DNA of 61,274 nucleotides from Candidatus Omnitrophota bacterium (GTDB lineage: Bacteria; Omnitrophota; Gorgyraeia; Gygaellales; Profunditerraquicolaceae), in assembly GCA_040754255.1 (NCBI GenBank), contig JBFMDA010000002.1:1-61274 (forward strand), written 5' to 3'. Below, piece by piece: positions 7,886 through 38,082 of this stretch (its first letter is position 1; each line of letters opens with the position of its first letter). The notes beneath the pieces were generated by a model. The model was not told the origin of the DNA. It did not search any database and was given only the letters and a program-made list of their open reading frames with translations. Both the position numbers and the translations under genes were made by a program.

Positions 7886-7894
7886 GAATTTAAA

Positions 7895-8347: not shown

Positions 8348-8360
8348 GTATGCTCTCCCG

Positions 8361-18372: not shown

Positions 18373-19283
18373 TTGATCGGATTCAGCTCAAACCAGCCAA
18401 ACTTCTCGGCATATTTGATATCCACGCCGCTGCATATTTTATATTGCCTGCAAGATGCGCAAATCGAAGCTTTCGTCGTAACAGAACTACGGGGCAGCAT
18501 AGTCTTTTCTTTATCCTTGATATAGTACGGTGTTTCTGGAATTCCAACATAATTCTCGTAATCCGCCATAAGACAAAATGGCATGGTTTCTATCTTTATA
18601 GGAAGCTCTTTTCCGTAGCCATACAAACGCTTTAATTTATTAATCGCTTTTTTAAATTCCTTCGCAATATCAGAATATGAAATAAAAAGTTGATTGAAAA
18701 ATCTCTCGGCATTGCCTGCATACATCAGGGTGTTCAATATTATACAATCAATTTTTTCGAAAGATAGAAGCATCCTCAGGAGAGGATAGAGATCTTTGTA
18801 ATTTAGCCTGGTAAGCGTTGAACACGTATTTACCTTTAACCGAAAAATATCTTTTAAAGCAATCATATTCTTCAACCCTTGAATGGTTTGCGCATACCCA
18901 CCGGGAGTACGAGTTAAAGCTTCATGAATTTTTTTTGAACTTCCATGGACTGAAATATTGACTTCCGTTAAACCTGCTTTGACGAGCTCATCGACATAGC
19001 CCCCGTAACGCAACAATCTTCCGTTTGTTTGAAGACAAATGTGTTTATACCCTTTTTGTTTCGCCAATGTAATAAAATGAGACAAATCTTTATTTAACGT
19101 GGGTTCACAGGTAGTAAAAAGCATCGAGTCGAGCGATACGATCTTTTTACTTTGCTTTAAGAACCCTTCAGGGGTTAACCAAGCGGCGTTTTTAAAAGAC
19201 AGGTCCGGCTTTCGGTCAGAACAAAAAATACAATTATTATTACACGCAGCGCTTGTAAATATAGTAAGCCGATCGTTATCCAT
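18369..19283 (-). CDS. radical SAM protein with SPASM/twitch-like C-terminus
   Basis: FTSAACNNNCIFCSD, QTNGR, SVHGSSKKIHEALTRTPGGY and CASCRQYKICSGV. Confidence 0.75.
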   Translation of the reverse strand: MDNDRLTIFTSAACNNNCIFCSDRKPDLSFKNAAWLTPEGFLKQSKKIVSLDSMLFTTCEPTLNKDLSHFITLAKQKGYKHICLQTNGRLLRYGGYVDELVKAGLTEVNISVHGSSKKIHEALTRTPGGYAQTIQGLKNMIALKDIFRLKVNTCSTLTRLNYKDLYPLLRMLLSFEKIDCIILNTLMYAGNAERFFNQLFISYSDIAKEFKKAINKLKRLYGYGKELPIKIETMPFCLMADYENYVGIPETPYYIKDKEKTMLPRSSVTTKASICASCRQYKICSGVDIKYAEKFGWFELNPIK

Positions 19284-19322: not shown

Positions 19323-21407
19323 TCAAGGTAAGCTGGTTAACGGCTTAAATTCGCCATTGCCATACAGTTTTAAATATAAATCGGGAATCCCCATACAAAA
19401 ATTATTTAATTTGCATTCGCTGCATTCAGGCAAGAAGGATATTGCATCTTCCGTATACGTCCCCTCATTACAGAAAATTATCCTGTTCATTGAAATTTTA
19501 ACGAAAGGGTTGTGCTCATAAAAATTACCTGGTAGACGCAATTCGCCCGCGGTATAGCCCGATAAGATATTTTTTAAATAAAATCTAGGCAGGACGCAGT
19601 ATGGTATCCTGATTTTGGCATGGCTCATTATCTTATTACGGTTTAACATCTTCGCTATCTCAGAGAATTTTGGCGCAAACTCAAAGTAATCGCGCTGGTC
19701 GTTGTTCCTGGGCCTTACCATACAAAAATTTATCGGGAATAGTCGAAAGTGCGAAGCAATAAAATCATATATTTTGGTTATATACAAATAGTTTTGTTTT
19801 AAAAGCAATGAATGCAACATTATTTCTATTCTGGGGAATTTCTGCAAATTCCTGATTGCATTTACCAAAATTTTAAAACTCCCGGGAGTACCAGTAATAA
19901 AATCGTGAGAATCGTCATTATATCCGTAAATGGACAATTGGACTTTATCGACACCAGAGGCAGAAAACTTACGGGTAAAATTAAAATCATTCAATTTTTC
20001 GCCGGAAGTGGACAGCCTAATTTCTCCATAACCTAATGCTTTCGCATATTTCAAAATTCTTAATACGCCGGGGTAATTTAACGGCTCGTTTCCTCCTATC
20101 CTTAGCTTGTCTATTTTCAGGTTATTGTGGATATACGCTAAATCTGCTTTTACTCTGTGCGGTTTAACTGCCGGTTCCTTGTTTTTTTTGTTTCCTATGG
20201 AACGCGAGCAAAAAATACAGCCCTTTTTACACGGAGAAGGGACTTCGAAAGAAGCAAAATAATTTTTAAAAGGTTTCTTTGGTATCGGCACTAACACGTT
20301 ATATCCGTTACTTCTAATGAAACCGCACTGCATTCCATCACAGGTAGAGGTAAATGCACATAAAGCACACCTAGGGCCTTTTACAAAATAGCGGTTTTTT
20401 ATAAAGAAATCCAGAAAATCAAAAATATCTATCGCATTGCCGTTATTGGCTATTGCGCGACTTTCAAACTTCGCCTGCAAGAACTCGCTGCCTTTTATGC
20501 AAAACGGAATACTTTTGGGCTTAACAATGCCGTCACGTTTAAATAACGCCAGGTCATTGCAAAAGCTTTTCATAAAACAATAACCGCATCGAGCACCTTT
20601 ACATTTTAAAGTCGTATTACTTTTAAAATATTGCTCAAACTCTGCTTTTCTCCCCTTTACCTCATAATATAATTTTTCAGGGCTCTGTATTAAGTTTTCA
20701 TACCCTTCGAAATATTGCGCCGGGAATCGGTTAGTGAAAATGTGCAAATTTTTATTTTTTGATAAATCAAACGCCTTCTTTAAATAGGGTAATTCTTTTT
20801 CTATATTATAAAAAAGGATTCTGCGGTTGTTCCATGCCCTGCCAAAAGGAACTATCTGCAATAGATCGAATTCACTCACGCCCATTCTTATGAAAAACTT
20901 TATAATAGTTGCAAGCCTGCGTACATTCAGCTTATTAACAACAATGTCTTGGCTTACAATTAGCCTGGGAGACTTTAACGCGTTAATTAATCCGGCTAAG
21001 GACTGTGAATAAGAACCCGCTACCTGCGTTATCCGGTCGTGGGGTTTTCCCTCGCACTCATGGATAGAAAAAGTTATCTCTTTTAATCCGGCGTCTATTG
21101 CATCCTTTAAAAAATTCTTATACGCGAACATTCTCCCGTTTGTTATAACCTGTATATGGCTATATCCTATCTTATTTGCGAATCTAACAATTTCGTGAAA
21201 TTTTGGGTGCAGAGAAGGCTCTCCTCCGCTTAAGACCGCTCTTCTTATATTTTCATTCCGCCCCTTCATTAATTCAGATTGTACTAGAGATAACTCTATG
21301 CAACTTCCGTCTTGCGATTCATAATCTAAGCAAAAAAGGCATCTATTATTGCACGCCTTAGTTAATCGTACCCAAAGCCTTTTTTCTTCTGAGGGACTTT
21401 TTGACAT
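19323..21407 (-). CDS. tandem double radical SAM protein (two complete rSAM cores plus Cys-rich auxiliary regions)
   Basis: Core 1 is LTKACNNRCLFC (C19/C23/C26) with GGEPSL, then CKGARCGYCFMKSFC and CALCAFTSTCDGMQC. Core 2 is SPCKKGCIFC (C393/C397/C400, TGT at 20229-20231) with GGNEPLNYPG, then CSECKLNNFCMGI. Confidence 0.75.
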   Translation of the reverse strand: MSKSPSEEKRLWVRLTKACNNRCLFCLDYESQDGSCIELSLVQSELMKGRNENIRRAVLSGGEPSLHPKFHEIVRFANKIGYSHIQVITNGRMFAYKNFLKDAIDAGLKEITFSIHECEGKPHDRITQVAGSYSQSLAGLINALKSPRLIVSQDIVVNKLNVRRLATIIKFFIRMGVSEFDLLQIVPFGRAWNNRRILFYNIEKELPYLKKAFDLSKNKNLHIFTNRFPAQYFEGYENLIQSPEKLYYEVKGRKAEFEQYFKSNTTLKCKGARCGYCFMKSFCNDLALFKRDGIVKPKSIPFCIKGSEFLQAKFESRAIANNGNAIDIFDFLDFFIKNRYFVKGPRCALCAFTSTCDGMQCGFIRSNGYNVLVPIPKKPFKNYFASFEVPSPCKKGCIFCSRSIGNKKNKEPAVKPHRVKADLAYIHNNLKIDKLRIGGNEPLNYPGVLRILKYAKALGYGEIRLSTSGEKLNDFNFTRKFSASGVDKVQLSIYGYNDDSHDFITGTPGSFKILVNAIRNLQKFPRIEIMLHSLLLKQNYLYITKIYDFIASHFRLFPINFCMVRPRNNDQRDYFEFAPKFSEIAKMLNRNKIMSHAKIRIPYCVLPRFYLKNILSGYTAGELRLPGNFYEHNPFVKISMNRIIFCNEGTYTEDAISFLPECSECKLNNFCMGIPDLYLKLYGNGEFKPLTSLP

Positions 21408-21417
21408 AGGAGGGTTA

Positions 21418-22344
21418 TTAGTTATCCTTCCTTATAAACTCTTTCTGGCCGTATTTTCTTAGGTATTCCTGCCAGATGCCCCAGCAATTACTATTCACTG
21501 GACAATCCTGGCACTCTTTGACCTTCACATAGGCAATGATTTTATTTTTTGATACCGCATAATACTCCTTGTACTTCGTTATTGATGAATGGGGTAAAAA
21601 GTTTTCTTCATTTCTGGAGTCCCCATATCGAATAGAGTTATTTTTAAAGTATTTATGAAAATAACAACCAACGGGCGGGTTAAGCAAGCACCATGAAAAA
21701 CCAAGATTTTGTCCTTTATCTAATGCGCCTGCGATATAAGGCGATGCTTCGGATATATGCGGAGTAAGGCTTTCAAACATTGACTCATTGTTCGTTATTA
21801 TATACATAAATTCCGCCCTCTTAATCTGATACGAAAGTAAGATTTTACTGATAGAGGGAAGATATTTGTAATTCTGTTTGGTAATGGTGGTATTGGTCCC
21901 TATTTGATTGAATCCTAATTTTTTTAAATTTTCTATCCCTTTTATCAGTTGTTGGAAACTCCCGGCTGTACTGGTAAGGAAATCGTGTACCTTGGGGCTA
22001 TTTCCGTGCAATGAAAAATCAATTTCTGAAACACCGGATTTTATTAATTGGCGGGCAAAATCATCATACGCCAGCATCCTGCCGTTTGTGCTTATTCTCA
22101 CTTTTTTAAAACCGACCTTTTTTCCATATGAGATTAACTCGCAAATGTCTTGCCTTATGGTCGGCTCTCCCCCGATTAAATTAAGCCAGCTTTTCCCCTT
22201 CTTTTTTGCTGCTAAAATTTCACTTTTAACTTCTTCTGTCGTTTTTTCGGGCAGATGACGGTTCTCCCGATCATAACAAAATAAGCAACCGTTATTGCAT
22301 TTAAATCCAAATACTATTGCCGCATGATCGCTAATGTTGTTCAT
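21418..22344 (-). CDS. radical SAM protein with SPASM/twitch-like C-terminus
   Basis: FGFKCNNGCLFCYD, IGGEPT, SLHGNSPKVHDFLTSTAGSF and CQDCPVNSNCWGI. Confidence 0.75.
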   Translation of the reverse strand: MNNISDHAAIVFGFKCNNGCLFCYDRENRHLPEKTTEEVKSEILAAKKKGKSWLNLIGGEPTIRQDICELISYGKKVGFKKVRISTNGRMLAYDDFARQLIKSGVSEIDFSLHGNSPKVHDFLTSTAGSFQQLIKGIENLKKLGFNQIGTNTTITKQNYKYLPSISKILLSYQIKRAEFMYIITNNESMFESLTPHISEASPYIAGALDKGQNLGFSWCLLNPPVGCYFHKYFKNNSIRYGDSRNEENFLPHSSITKYKEYYAVSKNKIIAYVKVKECQDCPVNSNCWGIWQEYLRKYGQKEFIRKDN

Positions 22345-23273
22345 ATAGCCAACTCCCTGCCTTGAAATTCAAGGAAATATTTTTTAAATAACCCGCCGCA
22401 GCTGCTGCCTTGAGAACAGTGTTCGCATATTTTAAGTTTAATTCTATTACGTGTCGGATAACAGGATAGTGTTTCCTTTAAAAATATATTTTTAGGGCCC
22501 TTCCATTGCTCAACGGTTATTCTCGGGGACCAGTGAGCGTCATTAGAGTAAAGTTCATAATTCTTTAATGCGCAAAGCGGAAGCCCGAAAAATCTAATAA
22601 TTAGGGCTTTCTTATGCGCATATGCAACTAATCGAGGGACTGCCCCTTGTATCTCTTTCAATGGAACGACTAATTTTTTAAAATTCGCCATGCCCCTACC
22701 TTCAGGTGCAAAATTAGAAAGAAGTATTTGTTTTACTTTTCTGAAACTACTTGCCAAATCTATGATCTTTTCAAGCGAGGCAAAATTATACCGCGTAATA
22801 ACCGTGTTAATGAATAAAAAAATACCTGATTTTGAACGCTCAACGTTCTCCAATGCGTTCGTGAGTTTACCAAAGCTTTCACAATTTGAAGTATGAAAAT
22901 TATGAAGCTTTCCGTTATGGCCATGAAGAGAAAAACAAATTTCATCAACATAAAAAAGTGCTTTATCGCAGAATCTTTTTGAGGAGAATAAACCGCCGTT
23001 AGAGCTACAATACACCGTATACATCAGCCGCTTGGCAGTTTGTATTATTTCTATAAAACGGGGGTGCAAAGTGGGCTCCCCGCCCGTCAAAGTAACGTGG
23101 TGCATGCCTTTTGCAGCGAAATAATCTAATTTACTTTTTATTGAATCGAAATTTACAAAACAATTTTTAAATTTTTGTAATTGGCCTGCTTCAGAGCAAA
23201 AAATACAGCTATTGGCACATTTATAGGAAATATGAAATTCTAGCCTCTCTACCTTAGTTGGGCTTTTCATCAT
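22341..23273 (-). CDS. radical SAM protein with SPASM/twitch-like C-terminus
   Basis: ISYKCANSCIFCSE, LTGGEPTL, SLHGHNGKLH and CEHCSQGSSCGGL. Confidence 0.75.
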   Translation of the reverse strand: MMKSPTKVERLEFHISYKCANSCIFCSEAGQLQKFKNCFVNFDSIKSKLDYFAAKGMHHVTLTGGEPTLHPRFIEIIQTAKRLMYTVYCSSNGGLFSSKRFCDKALFYVDEICFSLHGHNGKLHNFHTSNCESFGKLTNALENVERSKSGIFLFINTVITRYNFASLEKIIDLASSFRKVKQILLSNFAPEGRGMANFKKLVVPLKEIQGAVPRLVAYAHKKALIIRFFGLPLCALKNYELYSNDAHWSPRITVEQWKGPKNIFLKETLSCYPTRNRIKLKICEHCSQGSSCGGLFKKYFLEFQGRELAI

Positions 23274-23275
23274 CG

Positions 23276-24694
23276 CTATCCGTACAGTAAGTATGACAGC
23301 TGAAAATCAATATTTCGGTATTCATTTTTATTCTTTTGCACTAAACCTGCGTACCTGGTCAAAAAGCGGTCATCAAGGAAGCAATTTGAATAAATGTATC
23401 TTTCGCATCTTGTGTTCGTAGAAAATTTAATACAATTTTCGTCTTTTTCCACCGGGCACATTTTTTCTATCAACGCAAGTTCCTTTGGATATAGCTTTTC
23501 GGGTTCTTCATTGAATATTTTTTGAAACAAATTTTTATCGATTTTCCCTTCCTCCTGAATAGAACTTATTATATTGAAGCGCATTTCTAAATCCTTAGTC
23601 AATTGGAACGCGAATAGTTTTGGGAAAATATCTCGTTTGAGGTTTTTTTCATAATCCTGGTAATATAGGTCCTTTACATAGTACATCTTTTTAAACGCAT
23701 GAGAAATTGCCCCCCACCCTAATCCCAAAACCGAACTATTAAACTTATACATATCATAAAATTGTAAATTTTCTTTATCTGTGCTGTAATCCTCCAACGC
23801 ATAAGGATGCGCACTGCTAATCATCTGATACGCCAAGTCAAGCATCTTTTTGCAGCGGATTACATCAGAAAAATTCAGCGTAAGGCCGTTCTTAGCAAAT
23901 CTGGTAAAAATATCGGGACAAAAAGAGTTAACGTGAATAGTATCGGGCTTTAGTTTTAAAATGTTTTTTAATGAGGCCTGGAACGATTCAATTGATTGGT
24001 ACGGGACGCCCGCCATCAAATCGACATTAATATGGCGGATCTTCAATTTCCTGCAATTTTTATATAGCTGAAAAACTAAGTTTGCATTTTGTGGCCTCTG
24101 AAGCTTCTTGAGGACATTTTTGTCCAGTGACTGCACTCCGATGGTCACTTTGTTTACCCCATACTCCTTAAGTATTTTCACTTTCTCATACGAGCATGTG
24201 TAGGGGCTAAGCTCGACCATAAATTGTTCCATATTCCCTACATTAAAATTTTTAGAAATCATCTCCATGAGTCTTTTGAGATTTTTAAAAGACAATATCG
24301 AAGGCGTACCCCCTCCTATATACACGGTTCTTGCCTTTACTCTTTTGGGGAAATCAAGTAATGTGATTTCTTTTTCCAGCGCATTAAGGAAGCGGGAATG
24401 CGATTGATCATTAGTCTGAGGGAAAGACAGGGTATTACAATAAAAACATTTGCTGACACAAAATGGAATGTGGACATATACGCCGAACCTATCGTAACTA
24501 CCTTTCTCTTTAAGGATGGATGTCGCAACAGTTACCCACGATTTTTTTACTTCTTCTAAACTTATCGCTTTTCTCTTGAGTCTCAACAAGGAATACGGTG
24601 TTCCTAAGCCATAAAAAACCAAATCCCTGGTTATGCATTTAAACAGCTCAAGCTTCCGCCTTACTTCATTACTTAAAAGGGATGAGTTCGTCAT
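23276..24694 (-). CDS. HemN/HemW-like (class C type) radical SAM protein
   Basis: YVHIPFCVSKCFYCNT motif, YIGGGTPS, and a length typical of the coproporphyrinogen-III-oxidase-like family. Confidence 0.75.
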   Translation of the reverse strand: MTNSSLLSNEVRRKLELFKCITRDLVFYGLGTPYSLLRLKRKAISLEEVKKSWVTVATSILKEKGSYDRFGVYVHIPFCVSKCFYCNTLSFPQTNDQSHSRFLNALEKEITLLDFPKRVKARTVYIGGGTPSILSFKNLKRLMEMISKNFNVGNMEQFMVELSPYTCSYEKVKILKEYGVNKVTIGVQSLDKNVLKKLQRPQNANLVFQLYKNCRKLKIRHINVDLMAGVPYQSIESFQASLKNILKLKPDTIHVNSFCPDIFTRFAKNGLTLNFSDVIRCKKMLDLAYQMISSAHPYALEDYSTDKENLQFYDMYKFNSSVLGLGWGAISHAFKKMYYVKDLYYQDYEKNLKRDIFPKLFAFQLTKDLEMRFNIISSIQEEGKIDKNLFQKIFNEEPEKLYPKELALIEKMCPVEKDENCIKFSTNTRCERYIYSNCFLDDRFLTRYAGLVQKNKNEYRNIDFQLSYLLYG

Positions 24695-25595
24695 CTGAAT
24701 ACTTTAAAAAATATTTTTTGTAAACGCCTCCGCATACGCTGTTTTTCAAGCATTGCCTGCATTTTCGCGTTTTTATTCTTCCGATATCGATCTTGAAATT
24801 GTTTTCGACATATGTGTGCGGCTCATTCCATAAGCGTATTGCGCCATCATGGTCTTTGCGATTATCGATTTTAAACGGTTCCCATAAATCATAGGAATAC
24901 GCATACCTATCTCCTAAAATACACATCGGAATACCGGAAAATCTGATTTTAATATTTTTTAACTCGCAAAATCTTATTGCATTTATTATGTGCGGGGAAA
25001 GGACGGAAAATTTAGGAAAGATTTCATAAAATGTACGGCTCCCCTCTCCTGTAGGCACAATTGACATACATTGATATTCTGTTATTCCAAAATTATGGAT
25101 CAGTTCTGCTATTTTGGCCAGGAATCTATAATTAAGATTGGTTATTGCCGTAGTCGCTTGGAGCCTGCCTTTATAATATTTCTGCAGATTTTTCATTCCT
25201 TGCAAAACTGACATAAAAGCTGCCGGATTACGGGTATTAATTGAATGGATTTTATTATTATGCCCATGTATCGAAATCATAATTTCATCAAGATAAGGCA
25301 ATGTCCTGATGCAGAACTCATACGAACTGAACATAATTGCATTGGAAATAATAAATGTATTATACTGTAACGCTTTCGACAATTTTAGTATTTCAGGAAA
25401 ATGGGTGTGCAATGTAGGCTCCCCTCCTACAAAATGGACAAGATTTGCTCCCCTGGACCTTTCGGCGACTAAAATATTCTTAATTTTTGCGAATGAAAGC
25501 TCTGAGCCATCAAGCTTATTTCTTTCGCTGCAAAAAATACACCTATTACAGCATTTTTTTATAATAAAGAGGTCAATTCGTCTGGTTTGAGCCAT
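24669..25595 (-). CDS. radical SAM protein with SPASM/twitch-like C-terminus
   Basis: IIKKCCNRCIFCSE, VGGEPTL, SIHGHNNKIH and CRQCLKNSVCGGV. Confidence 0.75.
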   Translation of the reverse strand: MAQTRRIDLFIIKKCCNRCIFCSERNKLDGSELSFAKIKNILVAERSRGANLVHFVGGEPTLHTHFPEILKLSKALQYNTFIISNAIMFSSYEFCIRTLPYLDEIMISIHGHNNKIHSINTRNPAAFMSVLQGMKNLQKYYKGRLQATTAITNLNYRFLAKIAELIHNFGITEYQCMSIVPTGEGSRTFYEIFPKFSVLSPHIINAIRFCELKNIKIRFSGIPMCILGDRYAYSYDLWEPFKIDNRKDHDGAIRLWNEPHTYVENNFKIDIGRIKTRKCRQCLKNSVCGGVYKKYFLKYSDDELIPFK

Positions 25596-26529
25596 ATTTG
25601 CAGGGAAGAATCGAACAGTACATACTAATCTCTTTTGGCCGCGAAGCGTTTAACAAGGACAACCCCAGGGCCGTAGGATAAATACAACAGTTATATGCGC
25701 CAGAAAAATTATTTGCTCGGTAAATAAATTTATTTACGGACGAAAGGGGAACTTTCAGCTTCTTTATATCTATCCATCTTTTTTCCAGATTAGAATTGCA
25801 CTGGAATTCCCCTGTTTCATAAATTAAATAATTCTTCAGGGAATCTACTTTACCGGATTTTTTAAATTTGACCGCTGCAAGATAAAATACATTGTTCTTG
25901 GGTGAATTCTTGAAAAATGCGCTAAATTTAGTTTTGATGCCGTGGGGCAAAAAGCTAAATTTATTTAATTCTTGTAGCGAACAGTATTTAAAGTAAAGCT
26001 TCATCGACATTTGATTACTTTTCGGGGAACACACTAACGCAAGCGCACAGATTCCGTATCGCACATACAAACCCAATATATCCGGATCATAGCCCGATAT
26101 TATACACAACTTATGCAAAATGTCGTGTTTTAGAAAGGGGACGCATTCAACTTCAATCTTTAAAATGGGAGATTGATCTGATTCAATCCACTCAAGCCCC
26201 AAAGTAATTGGAAAGGATTTAATCACTTGGATTGCTTTTTCCGCTTGTCGGCGTAATTCCCCCGCATAACTCAATCTCATTATCGAACGTATTTTATTGA
26301 GAAACTCCTTCTTCTCGCCGGAATCATTAATACTAAATCTTAAAAGACGATTGGGCATTTTTTTAATTTTAAAAGAAAAATCGAACTTAAAAGAATTAGG
26401 CCTAATCTTGTGGCACCCATCAAAAAGGATTTTGGTAATACGCGGGAAATCCTTCTTTTGATAAATATTATTTTCCCTCGCAATTTTTTCAATAATGTTT
26501 CTGTAACACGCAAAGATGTTAGGGTTCAT
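25573..26529 (-). CDS. hypothetical protein, paralog of the C-terminal domain of the 625-aa rSAM fusion; possible ABBA-type prenyltransferase fold
   Basis: Shares KFDFS, LRFSxNDxGEKKxF, TxGLxWxxS...PxLK and K-x-Y strand ends (MKLYFKY, LKNYLIYE) with residues ~320-625 of ORF 27576..29453. FDFS and LYF strands resemble NphB/CloQ-type sequences from memory. Confidence 0.35.
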   Translation of the reverse strand: MNPNIFACYRNIIEKIARENNIYQKKDFPRITKILFDGCHKIRPNSFKFDFSFKIKKMPNRLLRFSINDSGEKKEFLNKIRSIMRLSYAGELRRQAEKAIQVIKSFPITLGLEWIESDQSPILKIEVECVPFLKHDILHKLCIISGYDPDILGLYVRYGICALALVCSPKSNQMSMKLYFKYCSLQELNKFSFLPHGIKTKFSAFFKNSPKNNVFYLAAVKFKKSGKVDSLKNYLIYETGEFQCNSNLEKRWIDIKKLKVPLSSVNKFIYRANNFSGAYNCCIYPTALGLSLLNASRPKEISMYCSILPCKYGSNQTN

Positions 26530-26538
26530 TTTTAAGGA

Positions 26539-27579
26539 TTAAAAACTGCGATTGCCTAATGCCTTATTTAGATATGCAACAAAATTTGACATTAATTGGC
26601 CCGCTAAGATAGTATTATTCAGGTATTTGGTAACATTATTTTCACGGAAAATTATTTCCATTGCTTCTTCGTTAGTAAGCCGCTTTTTCTCAAACTCGTC
26701 CATACTCTCTTTTATTTCGTTGATATTCCCCAGAATGAACTTCCTTTTCCTCTCGTAGTTTTGAATTAAATAACTGATGCACGCAGAGTAGATGTTCCCA
26801 TCAAAATCCACAGATATCTCAGTATTCATCCTAAACGGAGGAAACCATTCTGTCAGATTTTGCAACCGGATATCATCTTTTAGCCTTAGTTTTAAATACA
26901 GGTTCCTTAACGTAATCAGGTTTCTTGCCAAAACTATTCTATCATTATTTGACCACTTTACTCCGCAGGCAATCATTATAAATATGTTCCTAAATCCTAA
27001 TTGAACTAAATGGCTGAAATTGTCAACAATTCTTCCTACTGTCATGGGTGAAACTACCATGCTCACCTGGCAATCTGCATTATATTTAAAAATTATAGGG
27101 AGGTTGCGTACAATAAGAGAATATGAATCCGGCAAGCCATTCTTTTGCGGCCTATTTAATCTCTGCGACCCGGGCCCTCCATCAAGGCTTAGTTCAAGAA
27201 GTACATTGTGTTCTTTAAAGAACCTTACTTTTTCTTCGTTCAAGAGCACCCCGTTTGTTGTAAGAATCGGGGTTAACTTTCTTTTTCTGGCATTTGCTAC
27301 TTTGTGCGCATACAGTATGCCTTTCTTTAAAACCTTAAAAGGCAGCATGAGGGGCTCACCGCCGAAAAAATGTAATTGTAAAACGTCAGCCGAGGAAGTC
27401 ATCAAGAAGTCGACCGATTTAAGCAGCACGTCTTCGGACATATATCTCTTTGCATTTTGAGAAACAAAGCAATATTTACATTTCAAACAACAATCGTGTG
27501 TTAATAACAACAGCAATCTAGCTGTTCTAAAATCAGCCCGACCGGCCACTTGGTTGTTTCTTTTTTGTGAGGAAATCAT
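26539..27579 (-). CDS. AnSME/HxsC-like radical SAM protein without recognisable SPASM cysteines
   Basis: LTHDCCLKCKYCF, FFGGEPLM and TTNGVLLNEEKVRFF...SLDG. The C-terminal third lacks a Cx2Cx5C block. Paralog of ORF 29450..30379. Confidence 0.65.
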   Translation of the reverse strand: MISSQKRNNQVAGRADFRTARLLLLLTHDCCLKCKYCFVSQNAKRYMSEDVLLKSVDFLMTSSADVLQLHFFGGEPLMLPFKVLKKGILYAHKVANARKRKLTPILTTNGVLLNEEKVRFFKEHNVLLELSLDGGPGSQRLNRPQKNGLPDSYSLIVRNLPIIFKYNADCQVSMVVSPMTVGRIVDNFSHLVQLGFRNIFIMIACGVKWSNNDRIVLARNLITLRNLYLKLRLKDDIRLQNLTEWFPPFRMNTEISVDFDGNIYSACISYLIQNYERKRKFILGNINEIKESMDEFEKKRLTNEEAMEIIFRENNVTKYLNNTILAGQLMSNFVAYLNKALGNRSF

Positions 27580-29453
27580 CGTTTAACCGTAAAATAAACG
27601 TCGACCTTTTGCGAACGCCTTGCGTAATCTATAGCCGCAATCACCGGGAACACGTTTCTTCCTTTTAAAGCGCACAAACTGGCTATTTTTGAAAAAACTT
27701 TTTCTGACGCTTCGTCTTTTGAATTAAGTAACATTTTCCTGATTTCTGGCATAATGATTTTAGAATCCTTAATTTGCCTAATTTCATATATCTTATATAA
27801 CTTAATTGAGTGGACAAGGCCGTCCGGTTGGAATCTTCTAGTAATGTAATAAAATGCTTTTGATCTATCTCCATTGTTATCTAAAATTGATTTCAAAATT
27901 TTGGAATTTGATTCCAGCCTATTATTTTTTAAAAGGGCTAAAAAGCCTACATCAGTCAACTTATCATACTTGCAATATATTTTTAAGTTACACTTTCCCC
28001 TTGGGATAAAATCTACGCAAATCGCGCCAATAACTTCGTGAGGATTAATTTGTAATTTTCGATAATCGATATCCAATAGCTCACAAATCCGTTGGAGAAT
28101 AATCCTGATTTCTGGCTGGGCAAAGTAATGGAACAATTCTTCAAAATAAACTTTTAGTCTTGGGCAACTTGTCCCGCTTAACCAATCTAAGCCAATGGTC
28201 GTTTGCTGCTTATTGCCAAACGGGACCATTATACGTAAAAGCTCATTCAATTGATTCATAGGGAAGGAATCGCCGAAAAGTTGGAAGATTCCCTTTAATT
28301 TGTGTGTGAACCTCTTTTTTTCTCCAAAATCATTATAACTAAATCTTAAACTTCTTGGATTATTATTGCTGGCCGAAATAGAAAAATCGAATTTTTGATT
28401 ATCTCCAAGCCATGTTTCGTCAAAACCTGAAAATAAAATATCTTTTATTTCACTAACCTTGCCATCCTGTATCTTCAGGCCATAGTGCGTAATGAGTAAA
28501 TTAGAAATATCCTCAAAAATAGAAACGGTAGAATCGCTGCCTGTGTTATGTATTGGAATTCTTTTTCTAACGGGCTTAAATTCTTCCCATCCGAATTTCT
28601 GCGGATACTCCCTCCAAGGGCCTTCACACACTGCGTAGTATCGGCACGAAGGACATTTTGTTGACTTACTTTTCCCCTCCTTTTTACGCACGATCCCAAA
28701 ATTTTCTATAACTCCGTTTACATCGAATATCTTTGTTTCGGGCAAAATCTTCTCAGCGATATAATCCTCAAAACCAGCCATAAAACAGTAAGGAATTGCC
28801 TCGGTCATCACTCTCTTCCCGGCGGATATGCCTTTTTCTAGGGCCAGCTTAACAAACGGCTCGACAAGCGTCATTCGGGGTACGATAGAATCAAAGTTAT
28901 CCTTTGCGCTTCCTAAAGGGTGAGGGAATGCGAATTGGAACTGGTCAACTCCGAGCCTAATCAATACGTCTGCTATCGAGGGCAAATACGGAAAATTAGA
29001 CTTGGTTATGACGGTATTGGTAATAACCGTCTGCCCTAGTTTTTTTAAGTTTGCTATCCCATCAACAGTTTGTGTAAAGCTGCCGGGAGAACTTGTGAGG
29101 TAATCATGCATTTGGGGGGTACTTCCGTGCAAGGCGGGAGAAAACTCATTCGCACCGCACTTAATCGCTTTTTTGCAAAAATCAAGATAAGAAAAAAAAC
29201 GACCATTAGACTGGACCTGGATAGTGTTGAAATTCAATGCTCTGGCAAAGGAAACTAATTGAAAGAAGTCCTTATGCAAGGTAGGCTCTCCACCGGTGAA
29301 GACTATATCGCAACAGCTCTGCCTAGCTTGCTCCATTTCTTTTCTTATAATACTGGCATCCCTGCTTCCATATGCATTGCGTTTTTCGCCCTGAACGCAA
29401 AATTTGCAGAAATTATTACAATTGAATCCGATCTTTATATCGGCTTTCATCAA
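27576..29453 (-). CDS. radical SAM (N-terminal ~300 aa) fused to an ABBA-prenyltransferase-like domain (C-terminal ~300 aa)
   Basis: IGFNCNNFCKFC, TGGEPTL, ALHGSTPQMHDYLTSSPGSF and CPSCRYYAVCEGP. Then KFDFSISAS, LRFSYNDFGEKKRF, PRLKVYFE, LKIYCKY and IKLYKIYE. Confidence 0.5.
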   Translation of the reverse strand: MMKADIKIGFNCNNFCKFCVQGEKRNAYGSRDASIIRKEMEQARQSCCDIVFTGGEPTLHKDFFQLVSFARALNFNTIQVQSNGRFFSYLDFCKKAIKCGANEFSPALHGSTPQMHDYLTSSPGSFTQTVDGIANLKKLGQTVITNTVITKSNFPYLPSIADVLIRLGVDQFQFAFPHPLGSAKDNFDSIVPRMTLVEPFVKLALEKGISAGKRVMTEAIPYCFMAGFEDYIAEKILPETKIFDVNGVIENFGIVRKKEGKSKSTKCPSCRYYAVCEGPWREYPQKFGWEEFKPVRKRIPIHNTGSDSTVSIFEDISNLLITHYGLKIQDGKVSEIKDILFSGFDETWLGDNQKFDFSISASNNNPRSLRFSYNDFGEKKRFTHKLKGIFQLFGDSFPMNQLNELLRIMVPFGNKQQTTIGLDWLSGTSCPRLKVYFEELFHYFAQPEIRIILQRICELLDIDYRKLQINPHEVIGAICVDFIPRGKCNLKIYCKYDKLTDVGFLALLKNNRLESNSKILKSILDNNGDRSKAFYYITRRFQPDGLVHSIKLYKIYEIRQIKDSKIIMPEIRKMLLNSKDEASEKVFSKIASLCALKGRNVFPVIAAIDYARRSQKVDVYFTVKR

Positions 29454-30379
29454 TTTAAAGTAGAAATAAATTCGGTAAGCTTATTATCGATAGTATGCGT
29501 GGATTTTAAAACTCTGAAAGGAGTGCATTTTTTAACAATGTTACCGAGGTCAGCGTTACGCATCATACGCTTTATGCTTTCAAAACTTCTAACCGAGTTC
29601 ACGTTTCCAAGCTTAAATTCTTTCGCATACTCAATAAAAGGCTTGGCAAGAAAAACATTGCTTGGAAAAATATCGCCGTTGCAATCAACAGTTACATTCT
29701 GATTAAAAAGAGGGACGCTTCCTAAGTTAAATTTATTTTTTACTTTAATATTGAAATCAGCCCCGAACTTGTTTATAAATATAGAAATCCGTTTCAAAGC
29801 TGACGCTATTTTTCTAATACTAACTTGATCCCAGTAAGCGAAATAGCTGGGAAGAAAATTAAAACTTCTAAATCCTAACCTCAAGAAATTAAAGAAGCGT
29901 TCCTCCAAGTTGCGAAGAGAATGTCGATCAATAAAAAAATTAAGGCTAAGATGCGAGAGGAGAAATAGCGAACTAAGACCGCCTCTGTTAGAAAACGTAT
30001 TAGAGTTGACGATTATTTCAAAATTACTGAGAGACCTGAAAAAATTTATTTTCTCTTCAGTTAACAATAAGCCATTCGTGGTGAGGTTAAGAAAAACGGG
30101 TCTTTTTTGCCTTGCCGCAACCTTCTTGGAATATACATATATTTTTTTTACCGTTTCAAATTCCAAGAGAGGCTCTCCCCCAAACAGCCTTATTAAAAAA
30201 CCACCGGGATCTAAGGCAGAATTAGAAAATAGGCTTAGGCTCTGTTTGGCGGTAGAAAATAACATCGAACATCTTTTTTTTAATAAAGGGCAATTACGGC
30301 ATGAAAGGTTACAGCGACGGGTGACAGTGAGCGTTAAGATATTATCTTCGGAGAATACATTACCGCAAGAAAGATACAT
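29450..30379 (-). CDS. HxsC-like radical SAM protein (AnSME-like core, no SPASM cysteines)
   Basis: VTRRCNLSCRNCP, FGGEPLL, TTNGLLLTEEKINFF. Starts 9 nt after the stop of the HxS-repeat peptide gene. Confidence 0.55.
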   Translation of the reverse strand: MYLSCGNVFSEDNILTLTVTRRCNLSCRNCPLLKKRCSMLFSTAKQSLSLFSNSALDPGGFLIRLFGGEPLLEFETVKKIYVYSKKVAARQKRPVFLNLTTNGLLLTEEKINFFRSLSNFEIIVNSNTFSNRGGLSSLFLLSHLSLNFFIDRHSLRNLEERFFNFLRLGFRSFNFLPSYFAYWDQVSIRKIASALKRISIFINKFGADFNIKVKNKFNLGSVPLFNQNVTVDCNGDIFPSNVFLAKPFIEYAKEFKLGNVNSVRSFESIKRMMRNADLGNIVKKCTPFRVLKSTHTIDNKLTEFISTLN

Positions 30380-30388: not shown

Positions 30389-30559
30389 TCACCATTGCCC
30401 GTGGGAACCGTGGGAGCTATGAGAACCGTGAGAACTATGCCCGCCCCTGTTTCCTGAGCCAAAATCATTCGATATATAACTTCCGTGGGTGTCCCATTGG
30501 GCATATACATTTTCCATGGCTTGAATAATCAAAAAGATAGTCATTAAACTTATCCCCAT
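30389..30559 (-). CDS. hxsA: exported His-Xaa-Ser repeat peptide (HxsA-like), 56 aa; candidate maturation substrate
   Basis: The internal ATG at 30557-30559 of the 124-aa track ORF gives MGISLMTIFLIIQAMENVYAQWDTHGSYISNDFGSGNRGGHSSHGSHSSHGSHGQW. This has a signal-peptide-like N-terminus and tandem HSS-HGS-HSS-HGS-HGQ encoded at 30395-30439. The start codon is uncertain because there is no strong RBS. Confidence 0.6.
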   Translation of the reverse strand: MGISLMTIFLIIQAMENVYAQWDTHGSYISNDFGSGNRGGHSSHGSHSSHGSHGQW

Positions 30560-30623
30560 TTTTACCGCATTTTTTCTTGTAATCCTTGCTTCCTCGCTAG
30601 AAAGAAAAAACTTAAGGTCCTTC

Positions 30624-31187
30624 TTAATTTGCGGAAGTTTCTTCAAGGCTCGCCTCCTTTTTTTTCCAATAATTTTCAAATACTTGACCTGCCTCTTCTT
30701 GCGTGAAACCGTGCGTAGTTTGTTCCAAAAACTTGGCCTTCTCTCTTTCTTTGATTTGGGCATCTACGGCCTTACGATCCTCAACAAGCTTAGGCTCTGA
30801 GCCATCAGGGCACGTAAGGTAGGAATGCGAGAACATCTTCGAGTCGCATACAAAACGAAGATCAACTATTTTTCTTTCCCAACCGTTTTTATACTTAAAG
30901 TCCCTTTTCCCGCTGATAGGATCGCTGTAAATTACCACCTTCAGCCCTCTCATGTATGGAGGCGGATTCTGGATATTATTAATCAAATAGGGTTTCCCTC
31001 GTACCAGGCCTATTCTCCCTTCCTCAACTTTTTGCAACTCCCCCTTACATACAGGGCATACATCGCCTTCCTTCGGTGAAATGAAAACAACCTCATCATT
31101 TGGACAGCCTCTAATTTCAACGGCACACGCAACACTTGAATGTAAAAGGACAAATACAAAAATAGCTATAAAAGGAATCCTCTTCAT
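30624..31187 (-). CDS. exported protein with CPxC motif
   Basis: Signal peptide MKRIPFIAIFVFVLLHSSVACA|VE. ISPKEGDVCPVCKGELQKV resembles the short CPxCGMxL heavy-metal-binding domain (from memory). Charged C-terminus. Confidence 0.6.
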   Translation of the reverse strand: MKRIPFIAIFVFVLLHSSVACAVEIRGCPNDEVVFISPKEGDVCPVCKGELQKVEEGRIGLVRGKPYLINNIQNPPPYMRGLKVVIYSDPISGKRDFKYKNGWERKIVDLRFVCDSKMFSHSYLTCPDGSEPKLVEDRKAVDAQIKEREKAKFLEQTTHGFTQEEAGQVFENYWKKKEASLEETSAN

Positions 31188-31200: not shown

Positions 31201-32622
31201 TCAAGAAATCCACTTAGAAAAGATTTTTTTATACTCCTCGTCGTTCAGCCTGTCAAACAGGTATCCCAAAATAAAACTATTCATCTTGCATAATCTGCTA
31301 TTGGGCAACTGACAGAATAAGTTTCCTGTCTCTGCATAATTGATAACAGGGCAAATGCCACAATACGGCTTATACGCGCAATAATCGCAATACACGCTTT
31401 CCTGGCAAGAAGCAAAACAACTTGCAGGGATATTTACTGAATTAATGATATCTTTAAAGCTGTCTGTGCGCACGTTGCCAATCAAAAACGTGTCCTCCTG
31501 AAGCATCCTGGCTTCATCACAAGTATACACTTTTCCATCGTAATTATAGACGATCTGGCCGATGCCTGCACCACAGGGAGAGCGCAGGTCTAAGTAGGAA
31601 GGGTCTCGTTTTAATAAAATTTTGACGAGGAATATTTTTGCCGTCCTTTCAGACATTGTTGTCTTACCCGCTATGTTAAGCTTAACTAAATAGTCGAGGG
31701 CTTTTTTGTAAAAGTTAGCAAACTCTTCTGAAGTGTAACCTATTCTTTTTCTGTTTGCTTTTGACATCCCCAGGTTACTTATGGGGCGGAGATGAATTTC
31801 TTGAAATCCCCACTTGCGATATTCCTCAATTATCTCCTTAGGGTATTTGAGAGAAAATTTAGACAAGGTCAATAAAGCGCTAAGCCGCCTTTTGTGATTA
31901 TCGAATTTTTTGACCATTTTTATCTTTTGGGTAGTCAAATCGTATGAACTCCTGCCGGAAAAAAATTTCCTATTCCTGTCGTGCAGCGCCCGCGGGCCAT
32001 CTAAAGAGGTGCAGATGCCGACATTTTGATCGATGAGGAATTTGAGCTTATCTTTTGACAGAAGGCTAAGATTAGATACAAGCGTGATATTTACTAATTT
32101 TTTAAATGTTTTATTCATTGCAATTGTTTTCCGGCAAATAAATTCTATAGTTTCCCAGTTTGCTAAGGGCTCTCCTCCCTGCAATTCAATAGTAATGGCT
32201 TTTGAAGGAGATTCGAATATTGCCTCTAATGTCTTTTCTGCAGTGGCCTTGTCCATATCGTAGCCTTTTGCAGAAAACCCCTTGGCTGAGGCCTGGCAAT
32301 ATATACAGGAATGATTGCATCTTAAAGTGACTACTATGATGTGTAATGTCGGACCGCGCCAGATGAAGGAATTCTTCTGTCGGTATTGTTCAATAAGCTC
32401 GAAATTTTTAAGACGGTTCCTTATAAAACCCTTTCCTATCAACTCCTGATACACGGGTTCGTTTTTTCTTATCTCATTGTTCACTAACTTATTGAAAACA
32501 CTTTTTTTTAAAAAAATGTGCTCTCCTGCTTCAGTAGTCAACAGCACGTTTCCATTACATTCCCGGAAACGGAAAAAAGCCAAATTCCCTATCTCATCAA
32601 TTTTCTTTAACGCAGAACGCAT
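31201..32622 (-). CDS. hxsB: HxsB-like radical SAM/SPASM peptide maturase
   Basis: 473 aa. N-terminal ~90-aa non-rSAM domain, VTLRCNHSCIYCQASA, LQGGEPL and a full SPASM block CDYCAYKPYCGICP. Confidence 0.6.
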   Translation of the reverse strand: MRSALKKIDEIGNLAFFRFRECNGNVLLTTEAGEHIFLKKSVFNKLVNNEIRKNEPVYQELIGKGFIRNRLKNFELIEQYRQKNSFIWRGPTLHIIVVTLRCNHSCIYCQASAKGFSAKGYDMDKATAEKTLEAIFESPSKAITIELQGGEPLANWETIEFICRKTIAMNKTFKKLVNITLVSNLSLLSKDKLKFLIDQNVGICTSLDGPRALHDRNRKFFSGRSSYDLTTQKIKMVKKFDNHKRRLSALLTLSKFSLKYPKEIIEEYRKWGFQEIHLRPISNLGMSKANRKRIGYTSEEFANFYKKALDYLVKLNIAGKTTMSERTAKIFLVKILLKRDPSYLDLRSPCGAGIGQIVYNYDGKVYTCDEARMLQEDTFLIGNVRTDSFKDIINSVNIPASCFASCQESVYCDYCAYKPYCGICPVINYAETGNLFCQLPNSRLCKMNSFILGYLFDRLNDEEYKKIFSKWIS

Positions 32623-32623
32623 A

Positions 32624-32833
32624 TCAGGGGGATTTTATTGAAGCTAACACATAATTACAGAATTCTTGCTTTATTACCTTATGATACCCATTATCATAAT
32701 CGTATACACCTACCCGAATATAACGGTTTTTTTGTTTTATCGTAAATTTAGCTATGCCCTGGAAGGCTTTTATAGCTTTTAGAATTGATGATTGGGGATA
32801 GAGGTTTTTATGGAAATCGATGAATAACATCAA
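32624..32833 (-). CDS. small HxsD-like protein (short paralog)
   Basis: 69 aa. YPQSSILKAIKAF...FCNYVLAS parallels YPLEAIYATCYVF...FLNELLNNTLR of the neighbouring 142-aa protein. Confidence 0.35.
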   Translation of the reverse strand: MMLFIDFHKNLYPQSSILKAIKAFQGIAKFTIKQKNRYIRVGVYDYDNGYHKVIKQEFCNYVLASIKSP

Positions 32834-33258
32834 CGGGACTTTTTGCGTTTGTATTTCTCTTCCCAGGGGATCGCAATGCCCTCGGGATCATTTTGCCAAG
32901 ACTGATTTGTTTTCTCTTCCGAAGCGACAACCCCGTCGATTTCTTTCTTGGGCTGCGAGAAAAATAAAGCCTCTTTGACTATCATTTCCCGGATACGCTG
33001 ATTTCTTTTGGATATTTTAAACCGCAAGGTATTATTTAACAGTTCATTCAGGAATTCGCCTTTTAACAGATTGTGATTCCGCCTGTTGGAAGCTTTAGGC
33101 GTAAAAACGATTTTTATCCGCTGCCTCACCTCGTCTAAAAAAAGGTAGTACCTATCCACAAAGACATAACAAGTAGCGTATATTGCCTCAAGGGGATAGA
33201 TTCTGGGGTTTATAAGGAATTCCTGTTCTTTTTTGGCGTATTTAGACATAACCCGCAC
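32830..33258 (-). CDS. HxsD-like protein
   Basis: 142 aa. IYPLEAIYATCYVFVDRYY...KGEFLNELLNNTLRFKI resembles the LLNDYxLRE signature I recall for the HxsD family. 4-nt overlap with the next gene. Confidence 0.4.
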   Translation of the reverse strand: MRVMSKYAKKEQEFLINPRIYPLEAIYATCYVFVDRYYLFLDEVRQRIKIVFTPKASNRRNHNLLKGEFLNELLNNTLRFKISKRNQRIREMIVKEALFFSQPKKEIDGVVASEEKTNQSWQNDPEGIAIPWEEKYKRKKSR

Positions 33259-33261: not shown

Positions 33262-33858
33262 TCATGTATGTTGGACGCAAATCATGTAACCATTGGGAGG
33301 ACATCCATATTGCGTAAGCCATGAATTCCATCTATATAATGCAGGTGCTGTAAGCCTACCAGCACCAGCTCCACAATCTCCAGAACCGCAAGCCACAGCG
33401 AAATAATTAACAGGACAACGCGAATAAGTAGTTGAACCAGCATTAGTAGCGTATTCGTAACAAGCTGAGGCGTTTATGCCTCCGGTTACGGTTAAAGTAC
33501 CATTTATAATCACGTTAATATTGCCGCTGCCAGCGTTGTCTAGCCTAAGCGTATTATCGTTTATTAATATAATTCTTGCCCTGGGAGTACAACCACCGCC
33601 TCTGTCAAACTCTACCCATGGAGTAGCAGCAGCAAAACTTCCGCCTAGCGTTACGGAAGACCCATTCGAATTTACCAGCCCGCCGCATCCGGTAGTAGCA
33701 TTACCCCATTCTAATTCCCGATAGCTTCCGTAGGGAGAGGGATAGTATGTAACAACGGAAATCTTTTCTTCTGTCTGGGCATACAAAAAAGCAAAGCTTG
33801 CCAGAAGAAACACTAAAATCACTACCCCTATTGTAGTTGTTTCAGCCCCCTTTACCAT
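33262..33858 (-). CDS. exported Gly/Cys-rich protein, first gene of the island
   Basis: N-terminal hydrophobic segment ending FLYA|QTEE. 8 Cys. Repeat-like ILINDNTLRLDNAGSGNINVIINGTLTVTGGINA. GGAGG RBS 6 nt before the ATG. Confidence 0.6.
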   Translation of the reverse strand: MVKGAETTTIGVVILVFLLASFAFLYAQTEEKISVVTYYPSPYGSYRELEWGNATTGCGGLVNSNGSSVTLGGSFAAATPWVEFDRGGGCTPRARIILINDNTLRLDNAGSGNINVIINGTLTVTGGINASACYEYATNAGSTTYSRCPVNYFAVACGSGDCGAGAGRLTAPALYRWNSWLTQYGCPPNGYMICVQHT

Positions 33859-35941: not shown

Positions 35942-36604
35942 CTATGGACGCAACCCTGACGCAAAGAATTTCAAACCCAGCCAGACAAGGATCCCTGCGG
36001 AAACAAGCCTTGAAAAACGGTAATATCCCTGATAATTCGCCTGAAGTTTAGGAAGCAATCCTGCGAAAACAACCAAAAGTATTAAGGGGGAGAGGAATGT
36101 TCCAAGCCCAAATACAAAACTGTACGCCACACTTGATGCCAGGGTGCTTGAGATAAGACCGATATATGATAAAATTACCAAAAAAGGGCCGCAGGGAATC
36201 AGGCCGGCAAATAACCCGAGCGCAATGAGGCTTTTTTTATCGCGCTCGATAATGTGCCTTGAAAGGAACGAGCACCAGCGGTTCTTTGTCCCGCGTATGT
36301 CAAAGAAAACAATAATCCCAAGTAGTAACAATACGCTTCCTAAGGCCATTAATAGATAACGCGACATACCCCACAACGCTGACTCGACCAAAAGCCTACC
36401 TATCAAAAAGAAGAAGGCGCTTATGATGAAGTACGTAACTATCCGTGTGCAGGAAAATACTACATACGCAAATAGCCCTTGAGGTACAGTCTTTTTAGTG
36501 CCTGCAATGTAAGAAAGTAGTATTGGCCCGCAACTCAAAAGGCAAGGGCCTGCCCCAAGGAGAATTCCTGACAAAAATAGCTCTACAATTACCCGGTTAT
36601 TCAT
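35942..36604 (-). CDS. DsbD_2/TauE-like polytopic membrane protein with paired Cys-Pro motifs
   Basis: Start moved to MNNRVIVELFLSG (the ATGAATAA overlap with the upstream stop). GAGPCLLSCGPILL and GLIPCGPFLV motifs. About 6 hydrophobic helices. Confidence 0.6.
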   Translation of the reverse strand: MNNRVIVELFLSGILLGAGPCLLSCGPILLSYIAGTKKTVPQGLFAYVVFSCTRIVTYFIISAFFFLIGRLLVESALWGMSRYLLMALGSVLLLLGIIVFFDIRGTKNRWCSFLSRHIIERDKKSLIALGLFAGLIPCGPFLVILSYIGLISSTLASSVAYSFVFGLGTFLSPLILLVVFAGLLPKLQANYQGYYRFSRLVSAGILVWLGLKFFASGLRP

Positions 36605-38081: not shown

Positions 38082-38082
38082 A

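Follow-up and report, generated by a model that had tools for sequence, protein, structure and literature searches.

The stretch of DNA analysed here, referred to as the window, comprises 61,274 nucleotides of contig JBFMDA010000002.1 (assembly GCA_040754255.1) from Candidatus Omnitrophota bacterium. On its minus strand lies a gene (27576..29453; 625 amino acids counted from a TTG codon) whose product joins a radical S-adenosylmethionine (rSAM) half (residues 1–300; 28554..29453, minus strand) to a C-terminal domain (residues 309–625; 27579..28529, minus strand) with the predicted ABBA, or prenyltransferase (PT) barrel, fold of the aromatic prenyltransferases. A second minus-strand gene (25573..26529) encodes a free-standing copy of this domain, 318 amino acids in length, which we call type B. 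Both belong to a long run of genes that also specifies a precursor peptide of the His-Xaa-Ser (HXS) type, resembling HxsA3, and the proteins HxsB and HxsD. The two barrels are paralogs, and the family to which they belong is recurrently fused to, or encoded beside, one lineage of rSAM enzymes and co-occurs with HxsA3, HxsB and HxsD. Judged by its modelled structure, the domain is a new, unannotated and divergent family within the ABBA superfamily.

The limits of the fusion gene were taken from the list of open reading frames (ORFs) and from an alignment with full-length fused homologs of 618–642 amino acids recovered by protein searches (P0009, P0012–15 and P0017). An ATG at 29448–29450, the codon directly after the TTG, would give a protein of 624 residues and is the likelier start; its base 29450 is at the same time the last base of the rSAM gene upstream, so that this start and the preceding stop codon overlap by one base. 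As the original prediction had it, the gene encodes a radical SAM enzyme: the N-terminal half matches PF04055 with 65.7 bits (cut-off 29.5) and carries the CxxxCxxC motif as CNNFCKFC at residues 12–19 (nt 29397–29420). Its top NCBIfam models are NF038332 (HxsC4; 166 bits) and TIGR03977 (HxsC; 101.5 bits), both below their equivalog cut-offs of 500 and 267.9 bits, respectively, and we describe this half as HxsC/HxsC4-like. Further cysteines, C223 and C267-x2-C270-x5-C276 (nt 28626–28655 for the latter), are kept in the fused homologs, which suggests that they are candidate ligands of an auxiliary Fe-S cluster.

The similarity between residues ~309–625 of the fusion and the 318 amino acid protein is far beyond chance, and the two are paralogs. 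BLASTP of the last 306 residues of the fusion against the smaller protein gave an E value of 7e-17 (28% identity across 231 residues), and a hidden Markov model (HMM) of the family spans residues 309–624 of the former (428.6 bits) and 1–307 of the latter (317.7 bits). The homology of these two minus-strand ORFs had been claimed beforehand and is borne out by these searches and by alignment; the motif pairs quoted at that time, KFDFSISAS/KFDFSFKIK, LRFSYNDFGEKKRF/LRFSINDSGEKKEF, LKIYCKY/MKLYFKY and IKLYKIYE/LKNYLIYE, are all present in the two proteins. A second, more divergent ORF of the ABBA family is found also in three related loci (L001, L002 and L005).

Residues 310–625 of the fusion were modelled with AlphaFold2 (AF2) from a 20-sequence alignment. 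The model is confident (mean predicted local distance difference test, pLDDT, 90.8; predicted template modelling score, pTM, 0.90) and consists of five consecutive alpha-alpha-beta-beta units, in which two helices precede each strand pair. The ten strands comprise residues 46–53, 59–65, 108–116, 123–129, 165–173, 180–187, 224–232, 238–247, 291–302 and 305–315 (domain numbering, to which 309 is added for full-length numbering). The PT barrel is defined as ten antiparallel strands derived from five alpha-alpha-beta-beta repeats (PMC7973389), and the predicted model has this topology. Comparison of the model with the Protein Data Bank (PDB) using Foldseek, the check that the original prediction had proposed for the fold, returned 107 matches at E ≤ 1e-3. 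The best 50 of these 107 are all ABBA prenyltransferases at a probability of 1.00, with a best E value of 1.6e-10, query-normalised template modelling (TM) scores of 0.41–0.75 and sequence identities of 10–16%. Only ABBA prenyltransferases are present among the matches listed, which include IptA, TleC, 5- and 6-DMATS, PriB, MpnD, CymD, DMATS1, AnaPT, AuraA, PagF, AmbP1, AmbP3 and FamD1.

The ABBA fold had originally been proposed by comparison with NphB, CloQ and DMATS enzymes. The fold stands by the test set for it; the nearest relatives are the DMATS-type indole prenyltransferases and the cyanobactin F-type enzymes rather than NphB and CloQ. The NphB motifs quoted for the comparison (LDFSISV, VNLYFSE and YYKLGAYY) do occur in PDB entry 1ZB6. 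The equation of KFDFSIS with LDFSIS of NphB (residues 61–66 in 1ZB6) is probably not positional and was rejected because the strand order differs: KFDFS forms strand 1 of the model while LDFSIS is, by order, on strand 2. By the same strand order the Mg-binding Asp62 of NphB probably corresponds to Arg61 in LRFSYN.

At the sequence level the family lies far from those described. No Pfam or NCBIfam family matched the domain or its 318 amino acid paralog at E ≤ 0.01, and ten tail matches of the family search (P0082–P0092) likewise gave no Pfam families. When both window proteins were compared with PDB sequences by phmmer only rSAM proteins were matched, the barrel remaining unmatched; a profile of the core family (A1) found nothing relevant in the PDB. 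Alignment by hhalign of a 74-sequence profile with the lone NphB sequence paired the wrong repeat (probability 0.3); it is uninformative and carries no weight against the fold. The family is also small: a word-indexed search of 5.8 billion proteins recovered eight relatives with a single sequence and 19 with a profile, and HMMER, run exhaustively over 1.84 billion cluster representatives, gave 92 members at E ≤ 1e-3. In public databases family members are annotated as "hypothetical protein", "MoaA/NifB/PqqE/SkfB family radical SAM enzyme" or "pyruvate-formate lyase-activating enzyme". With its distant members P0102, P0089, P0090 and P0104 the family reaches beyond the candidate phyla. The last three of these are free-standing proteins of ~300 amino acids, rich in Ala, Arg and Gly, which keep the K-x-D-x-S, RFSxND and QTTxG motifs.

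Bridges to known prenyltransferases are nevertheless found among the distant relatives. P0105 matches the family profile at E 5.8e-4 in 1.84 billion proteins and the Pfam model Trp_DMAT (PF11991) with 29.3 bits, the gathering cut-off being 25 bits; it had no phmmer match in the PDB. P0097 and P0101 fall just under the Trp_DMAT threshold. A profile of a distant subfamily (A5) matches SmiF (PDB 9vt8) at E 1.9e-4. SmiF belongs to the LynF/TruF/PatF family of cyanobactin peptide prenyltransferases, and its relatives are LimF, PirF, PagF and PatF. Over strands 1–6 this profile can also be aligned in register with 6-DMATS (6zrx), a marginal match (E 0.45) that pairs EFS with K-F-D-F-S, LR with L-R-F-S, F-K-V-Y with L-K-V-Y and VD...V-K-L-Y with VD...L-K-I-Y. 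One might argue that the likeness to ABBA enzymes is an artefact of over-read alpha/beta repeats and that the true fold is unrelated, given the 10–16% identity to solved prenyltransferases, the hhalign result with NphB and the lack of a prenyltransferase among the PDB sequences matched by the window proteins. A confident model built from 20 sequences, Foldseek probabilities of 1.00 with ABBA enzymes alone among the matches listed, and the independent sequence bridges to Trp_DMAT and SmiF make this scarcely credible.

The association with radical SAM enzymes is a property of the family rather than of the window. Fused proteins of 591–649 amino acids are represented by P0009, P0012–15, P0017, P0021, P0041, P0050, P0052, P0058 and P0065, and by the longer P0072 (759 amino acids). 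Three arrangements are found, namely rSAM-ABBA, ABBA-rSAM (P0061) and rSAM-ABBA-rSAM (P0056); the sole other fusion partner found is a 2Fe-2S ferredoxin domain in P0102 (415 amino acids). Compared with that of the window, the rSAM half is 57–61% identical in the L010 and L011 fusions and 90% identical in L005. Where the ABBA gene is free-standing, a 57% identical ortholog of the rSAM half is usually encoded directly upstream (L003/L007, L008, L014, L015 and L019); in L003 the pair comprises an rSAM gene at 6521–7414 and an ABBA gene at 7407–8375. By comparison, the rSAM half shares 20–32% identity with the other rSAM paralogs of the window. This pairing with one rSAM lineage, whether by fusion or by adjacency, argues for a shared substrate. 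Our literature searches found no described fusion of a radical SAM enzyme with an ABBA or other aromatic prenyltransferase, in agreement with the original prediction, and a 2026 review nowhere mentions radical SAM (PMC13290415); searches on SmiF and on HxsA3/HxsC4 gave nothing relevant. As far as could be found within the literature searched, systematic fusion or adjacency of ABBA barrels with one rSAM lineage in giant HXS-type operons is undescribed.

Conservation was assessed over the 74 sequences of the core profile (A3), among which identity falls to 17–40%. K125 is invariant, and K45, D47, S49, R61, F62, E69, T110, G112, E129, K182, Y184, F225, K242, Y244, P294 and Y311 are conserved in at least 90%. 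In full-length numbering the family-conserved residues are K354, D356, S358, R370, E378, K434, Y436, E438, D481, K491, Y493, K551, Y553 and Y620. Lys/Arg account for five or six of this set and Tyr for four or five (Y127, Y184, Y244 and Y311, with Y227 kept less strictly); its carboxylates are D47, E129 and D172. Among these K45, R61, K125, K182 and K242 together with Y127, Y184, Y244 and Y311 are 84–100% conserved and stand in an i, i+2 register. The conserved polar residues show this spacing in all ten strands, which is the pattern expected of residues that all point to the same, lumenal side of the sheet. Donor sites of ABBA enzymes use basic residues to neutralise the diphosphate and tyrosines to form hydrogen bonds with it, and the carbocation is shielded by four tyrosines (PMC7973389). 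The conserved set resembles such a site and would fit a putative active, diphosphate-binding centre. Type B proteins (the 318 amino acid protein of the window, P0018 and P0019) retain most of these residues.

A barrel that had no catalytic function, and served as a peptide-binding or chaperone scaffold presenting the HxsA3 repeats to the rSAM enzymes, would need no invariant Lys, nor four further Lys/Arg, four Tyr and an Asp kept at 84–100% in sequences of such low identity; nor would one expect its conserved residues to line up with the motifs of the donor sites in 6-DMATS (E 0.45) and SmiF. Such a scaffold would resemble the recognition element (RRE) of ribosomally synthesised and post-translationally modified peptides, or PatF, a catalytically inactive ABBA protein; SmiF counts proteins of the PatF family among its relatives by sequence. 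The scaffold is also favoured by the constant fusion with or proximity to rSAM enzymes, by the loss of Tyr436 and Asp481 from the type B paralog, and by the lack of a prenyl-diphosphate synthase among the operon genes scanned. A dedicated synthase would, however, be unnecessary since all bacteria make dimethylallyl diphosphate (DMAPP) and isopentenyl diphosphate (IPP). On balance we consider a purely structural role unlikely.

The genes surrounding the two barrels form a co-directional minus-strand run of ~20 genes extending from ~33.3 kb down to 12.9 kb. This includes about twelve rSAM genes with ~14 rSAM domains, mostly HxsC/HxsC4-like, in addition to the two ABBA genes. The HXS components lie at its upstream end. 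HxsD is specified by 32830–33258 (TIGR03976, 59.8 bits, cut-off 50) and is followed by a short HxsD-like protein (32624–32833), the pair of ORFs also giving a match to NF038315 (63 bits, cut-off 41), and by HxsB, a radical SAM/SPASM maturase (31201..32622; TIGR03978, 481.4 bits, cut-off 370). The HxsA-like peptide of the original prediction was recovered at 30389..30763; it matches NF038309 (HxsA3) at E 2.6e-13 with 49.6 bits, under the cut-off of 65. The window therefore contains HxsB and HxsD above their cut-offs together with a precursor which, though below its own, has visible HSS/HGS repeats. Its C-terminus reads ...GGHSSHGSHSSHGSHGQW, and its true start is probably internal to the ORF. 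A 187 amino acid ORF with a signal-peptide-like N-terminus (MKRIPFIAIFVFVLLHSSVACA; 30624–31187, minus strand) runs into the 5' part of the HxsA3-like ORF, the two sharing 140 nt in different frames. This ORF has no family match and no counterpart in the other loci; of the two starts as assigned, one is probably incorrect. PADLOC reported only generic viperin-like rSAM matches and no HXS model.

Downstream of the precursor, and all on the minus strand, are an rSAM gene (29450..30379; 309 amino acids) immediately upstream of the fusion gene and, between the two ABBA genes, one whose 346 amino acid product is PapB/HxsB-like in its N-terminal part (26539..27579) and which overlaps the stop of the fusion gene by 4 nt. 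Six HxsC/HxsC4-like rSAM genes follow (24669–25595, 22341–23273, 21418–22344, 18369–19283, 16456–17442 and 14286–15266), interspersed with genes for a HemN-like rSAM (23276–24694) and a double rSAM of 694 amino acids in which one complete radical SAM domain follows another (19323–21407). Similar double rSAMs are found in L001, L002, L003 and L005. Within this run lies a DUF483 protein (17446–18372; 33.2 bits), with an 80% identical counterpart in the Omnitrophota locus L005 and none found in the other loci. A 383 amino acid protein (15275–16426) has a weak match, below cut-off, to Peptidase_A24, the prepilin peptidase family (E 6.7e-4), and is a possible leader peptidase of the HxsA3-like peptide; in L002, L003, L006 and L008 the operon has a counterpart of 22–29% identity close to its end. 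The last gene specifies a B12-binding rSAM (12929–14272). Just upstream of HxsD lies a gene for a 198 amino acid protein (33262–33858, minus strand) whose N-terminal part includes a hydrophobic segment and whose C-terminal part is rich in Cys and Gly; this protein has no family match and no counterpart in the other loci.

The block from 12929 to 33858 has a G+C content of 34–41% compared with 42–48% in its flanks. In L001 the same flanking genes, DsbD_2, RsmE and MtaB, stand directly before the ABBA and rSAM genes. Low G+C content and shared flanks together suggest an island at a conserved site, or else a variable region. The island is flanked on the minus strand by genes for a Memo-AMMECR1 fusion protein (36597–38096) and a Memo-like protein (10936–11754). 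Members of the Memo and AMMECR1 families normally travel with a radical SAM activase in the "AmmeMemoRadiSam" system.

Related loci were found in Candidatus Omnitrophota SURF_25, an Elusimicrobia metagenome-assembled genome, Candidatus Schekmanbacteria GWA2_38_11, Candidatus Azambacteria of the candidate phyla radiation (CPR) and metagenomes. The Omnitrophota locus L005 has the same gene order as the window and encodes proteins that are 71–92% identical. HxsD, HxsB and a peptide ending in SHGSHGQW are encoded in all loci that extend 3 kb or more upstream of the ABBA gene, L001 excepted. These loci contain 4–13 further same-strand ORFs with CxxxCxxC (candidate rSAMs), the number being 7–13 in all but L008 (4). 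Peptides ending in this way were recovered from eight sequence-distinct loci including the window; those outside it include L002 4967–5341, L003 4393–4656, L006 7665–7970, L008 6852–7151, L010 4632–4940 and L015 6944–7198. Each is composed of a leader (KKxIKxFLxSEEGKIxKK), a hydrophobic segment and an (SHG)n repeat that ends invariantly in SHGSHGQW, with the number of SHG repeats varying from ~4 to ~14.

This co-occurrence, in eight sequence-distinct loci from four phyla, bears on what the barrel might act upon. An active ABBA enzyme could in principle use a small-molecule acceptor (aromatic or cofactor-like, and made or modified by an rSAM enzyme) or a non-isoprenoid diphosphate donor. The best structural matches are indeed small-molecule indole prenyltransferases, L001 has ABBA and rSAM genes with no Hxs A, B or D in the 13.9 kb examined, and the HemN-like, B12-rSAM and DUF483 genes are atypical of peptide maturation. 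Against a small molecule stand the recurrent SHGSHGQW peptide, the fact that the best PDB relative at the sequence level, SmiF, is a peptide prenyltransferase, and the HxsC-like nature of the rSAM partner, HxsC acting on HxsA in the canonical system (PMC13128918). We therefore hold an acceptor or donor of this kind to be rather improbable.

The reading that we prefer, with a probability of roughly 0.5, is that the barrel is an active prenyltransferase (or allylic-diphosphate transferase) which modifies the C-terminal region of HxsA3, while that peptide, or the prenyl group, is also the target of the fused HxsC-like rSAM. As to catalytic activity, donor, acceptor and order of steps, we infer the following scheme. 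The 625 amino acid protein would be a two-module maturase combining an HxsC-like rSAM with a divergent ABBA prenyltransferase, and the 318 amino acid gene would specify a second, specialised copy of the barrel; both would serve a greatly expanded HXS "type 3" operon, with the HxsA3-like peptide as its substrate. The barrel would bind an allylic diphosphate, such as DMAPP, geranyl diphosphate (GPP) or a longer homolog, through its conserved Lys/Arg and four to five Tyr, and would move the prenyl group onto a nucleophilic side chain in the C-terminal region of the peptide. Candidate acceptors are the indole of the invariant terminal Trp and the imidazole or hydroxyl groups of the repeat His or Ser residues. 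The terminal Trp is attractive because the structural matches are indole prenyltransferases. The rSAM module might act on the peptide, or on the installed prenyl group, either before or after the transfer.

Several observations weigh against this scheme. The placement of the conserved residues in the lumen is read from the periodicity of the strands. Neither of the Pfam prenyltransferase models (PF11991 and PF11468) matches the window proteins, and the top PDB match of the core profile A3, again SmiF, is marginal (E 0.038). The type B paralog, which has probably specialised, carries Glu in place of Tyr436 (Y127 in domain numbering; LKIEVE) and lacks Asp481 (D172). A full-length AF2 model of the fusion (pLDDT 75) does not dock the two domains confidently (pTM 0.54); its rSAM half was modelled poorly, from seven sequences, and for this reason no inference on domain packing is drawn. 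L001, with two ABBA genes and seven rSAM ORFs, has no Hxs A, B or D in the 13.9 kb examined, and the scan of the operon genes turned up no prenyl-diphosphate synthase.

ABBA prenyltransferases find wide use as biocatalysts, and each subfamily known so far has proved informative. The present one is the only subfamily that we found fused to radical SAM enzymes, which it is in three arrangements, and comes from poorly studied phyla with no Pfam or NCBIfam model to represent it. The fusion offers a testable handle on the products of large HXS-type rSAM operons, one prediction being a His/Ser-repeat peptide that is lipidated and ends in a conserved Trp. An active barrel could add a new way of prenylating peptides, at His, Ser or a C-terminal Trp, that is coupled to radical chemistry. 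Going further, and more tentatively, the bifunctional rSAM/prenyltransferase and the second barrel might lipidate and radically cross-link or cyclise a His-Gly-Ser peptide within a giant, horizontally mobile HXS-type system of uncultured phyla. The product would then represent a new class, a peptide or protein that is prenylated and carries several rSAM modifications, and might serve as a membrane-anchored antiphage effector.

Among known systems, NphB and CloQ (PF11468) share the superfamily fold, and their relatives AmbP1, AmbP3 and FamD1 are among the Foldseek matches listed; the window proteins differ from them in the lower TM scores (0.41–0.57) and in having no PF11468 match. The DMATS-type enzymes (IptA, 7w8u; TleC, 4yzj; 5- and 6-DMATS, 6zs0 and 6zrx; PriB, 5jxm; CymD, 6os3; MpnD, 4yl7) are the top structural matches among those listed, with E values of 1.6e-10 to 1e-7. 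They have the same ten-strand PT barrel (TM up to 0.75), and the marginal alignment with 6zrx (E 0.45) places the strand-1 carboxylate, the strand-2 Arg and the K-x-Y of strands 4 and 6 in register. The identity is, however, 10–16%, the domain described here is shorter (~310 versus ~350–370 amino acids) and the window proteins miss PF11991. DMATS-type enzymes are stand-alone proteins acting on free Trp or indole metabolites, for which no fusion to or pairing with an rSAM enzyme was found.

The cyanobactin F-family (PagF, LimF, PirF, SmiF and PatF) has the same ABBA barrel in proteins of ~290–300 amino acids, PagF being matched by Foldseek at E 3.3e-7. In ribosomal peptides its members attach prenyl groups to Tyr, Trp, His, Ser/Thr or Arg. 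In cyanobactin clusters they are accompanied by PatA/PatG-type proteases and a PatE-type precursor. The genes described here differ in their Hxs-type repeat precursor, their rSAM partners and their hosts, which are Omnitrophota, Elusimicrobia, Schekmanbacteria and CPR bacteria rather than cyanobacteria. With SmiF matched at E 0.038 (A3) and 1.9e-4 (A5), and with no cyanobactin protease or macrocyclase family reported for the operon genes that were scanned, we do not place them in the LynF/TruF/PatF family. Peptide prenylation by ABBA enzymes is itself well established and extends to the His-geranyltransferase LimF (PMC13290415). The same review describes NctPC, an ABBA prenyltransferase that acts on a peptide Trp and is fused to a terpene-cyclase domain, this second domain processing the product (PMC13290415). 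We liken the two fusions by description alone; the partner in our case is a radical SAM enzyme and not a terpene cyclase.

Lastly, HxsABCD is an antiphage system in which HxsB, HxsC and HxsD process HxsA, resulting in a change of +8 Da in the last HxS repeat (PMC13128918). Canonical HXS loci are found in Pseudomonadota (99.7%), almost always consist of four genes, and encode an HxsA that bears a domain for binding peptidoglycan (PMC13128918). The operon in the window departs from this hxsD-B-C-A architecture in its ~20 genes, ~14 rSAM domains and two ABBA barrels, in its short HxsA3-type peptide and in its occurrence in candidate phyla. It resembles the canonical system in having HxsB and HxsD above their cut-offs, an adjoining His-Xaa-Ser repeat protein and, in the fusion itself, an HxsC/HxsC4-like rSAM half.

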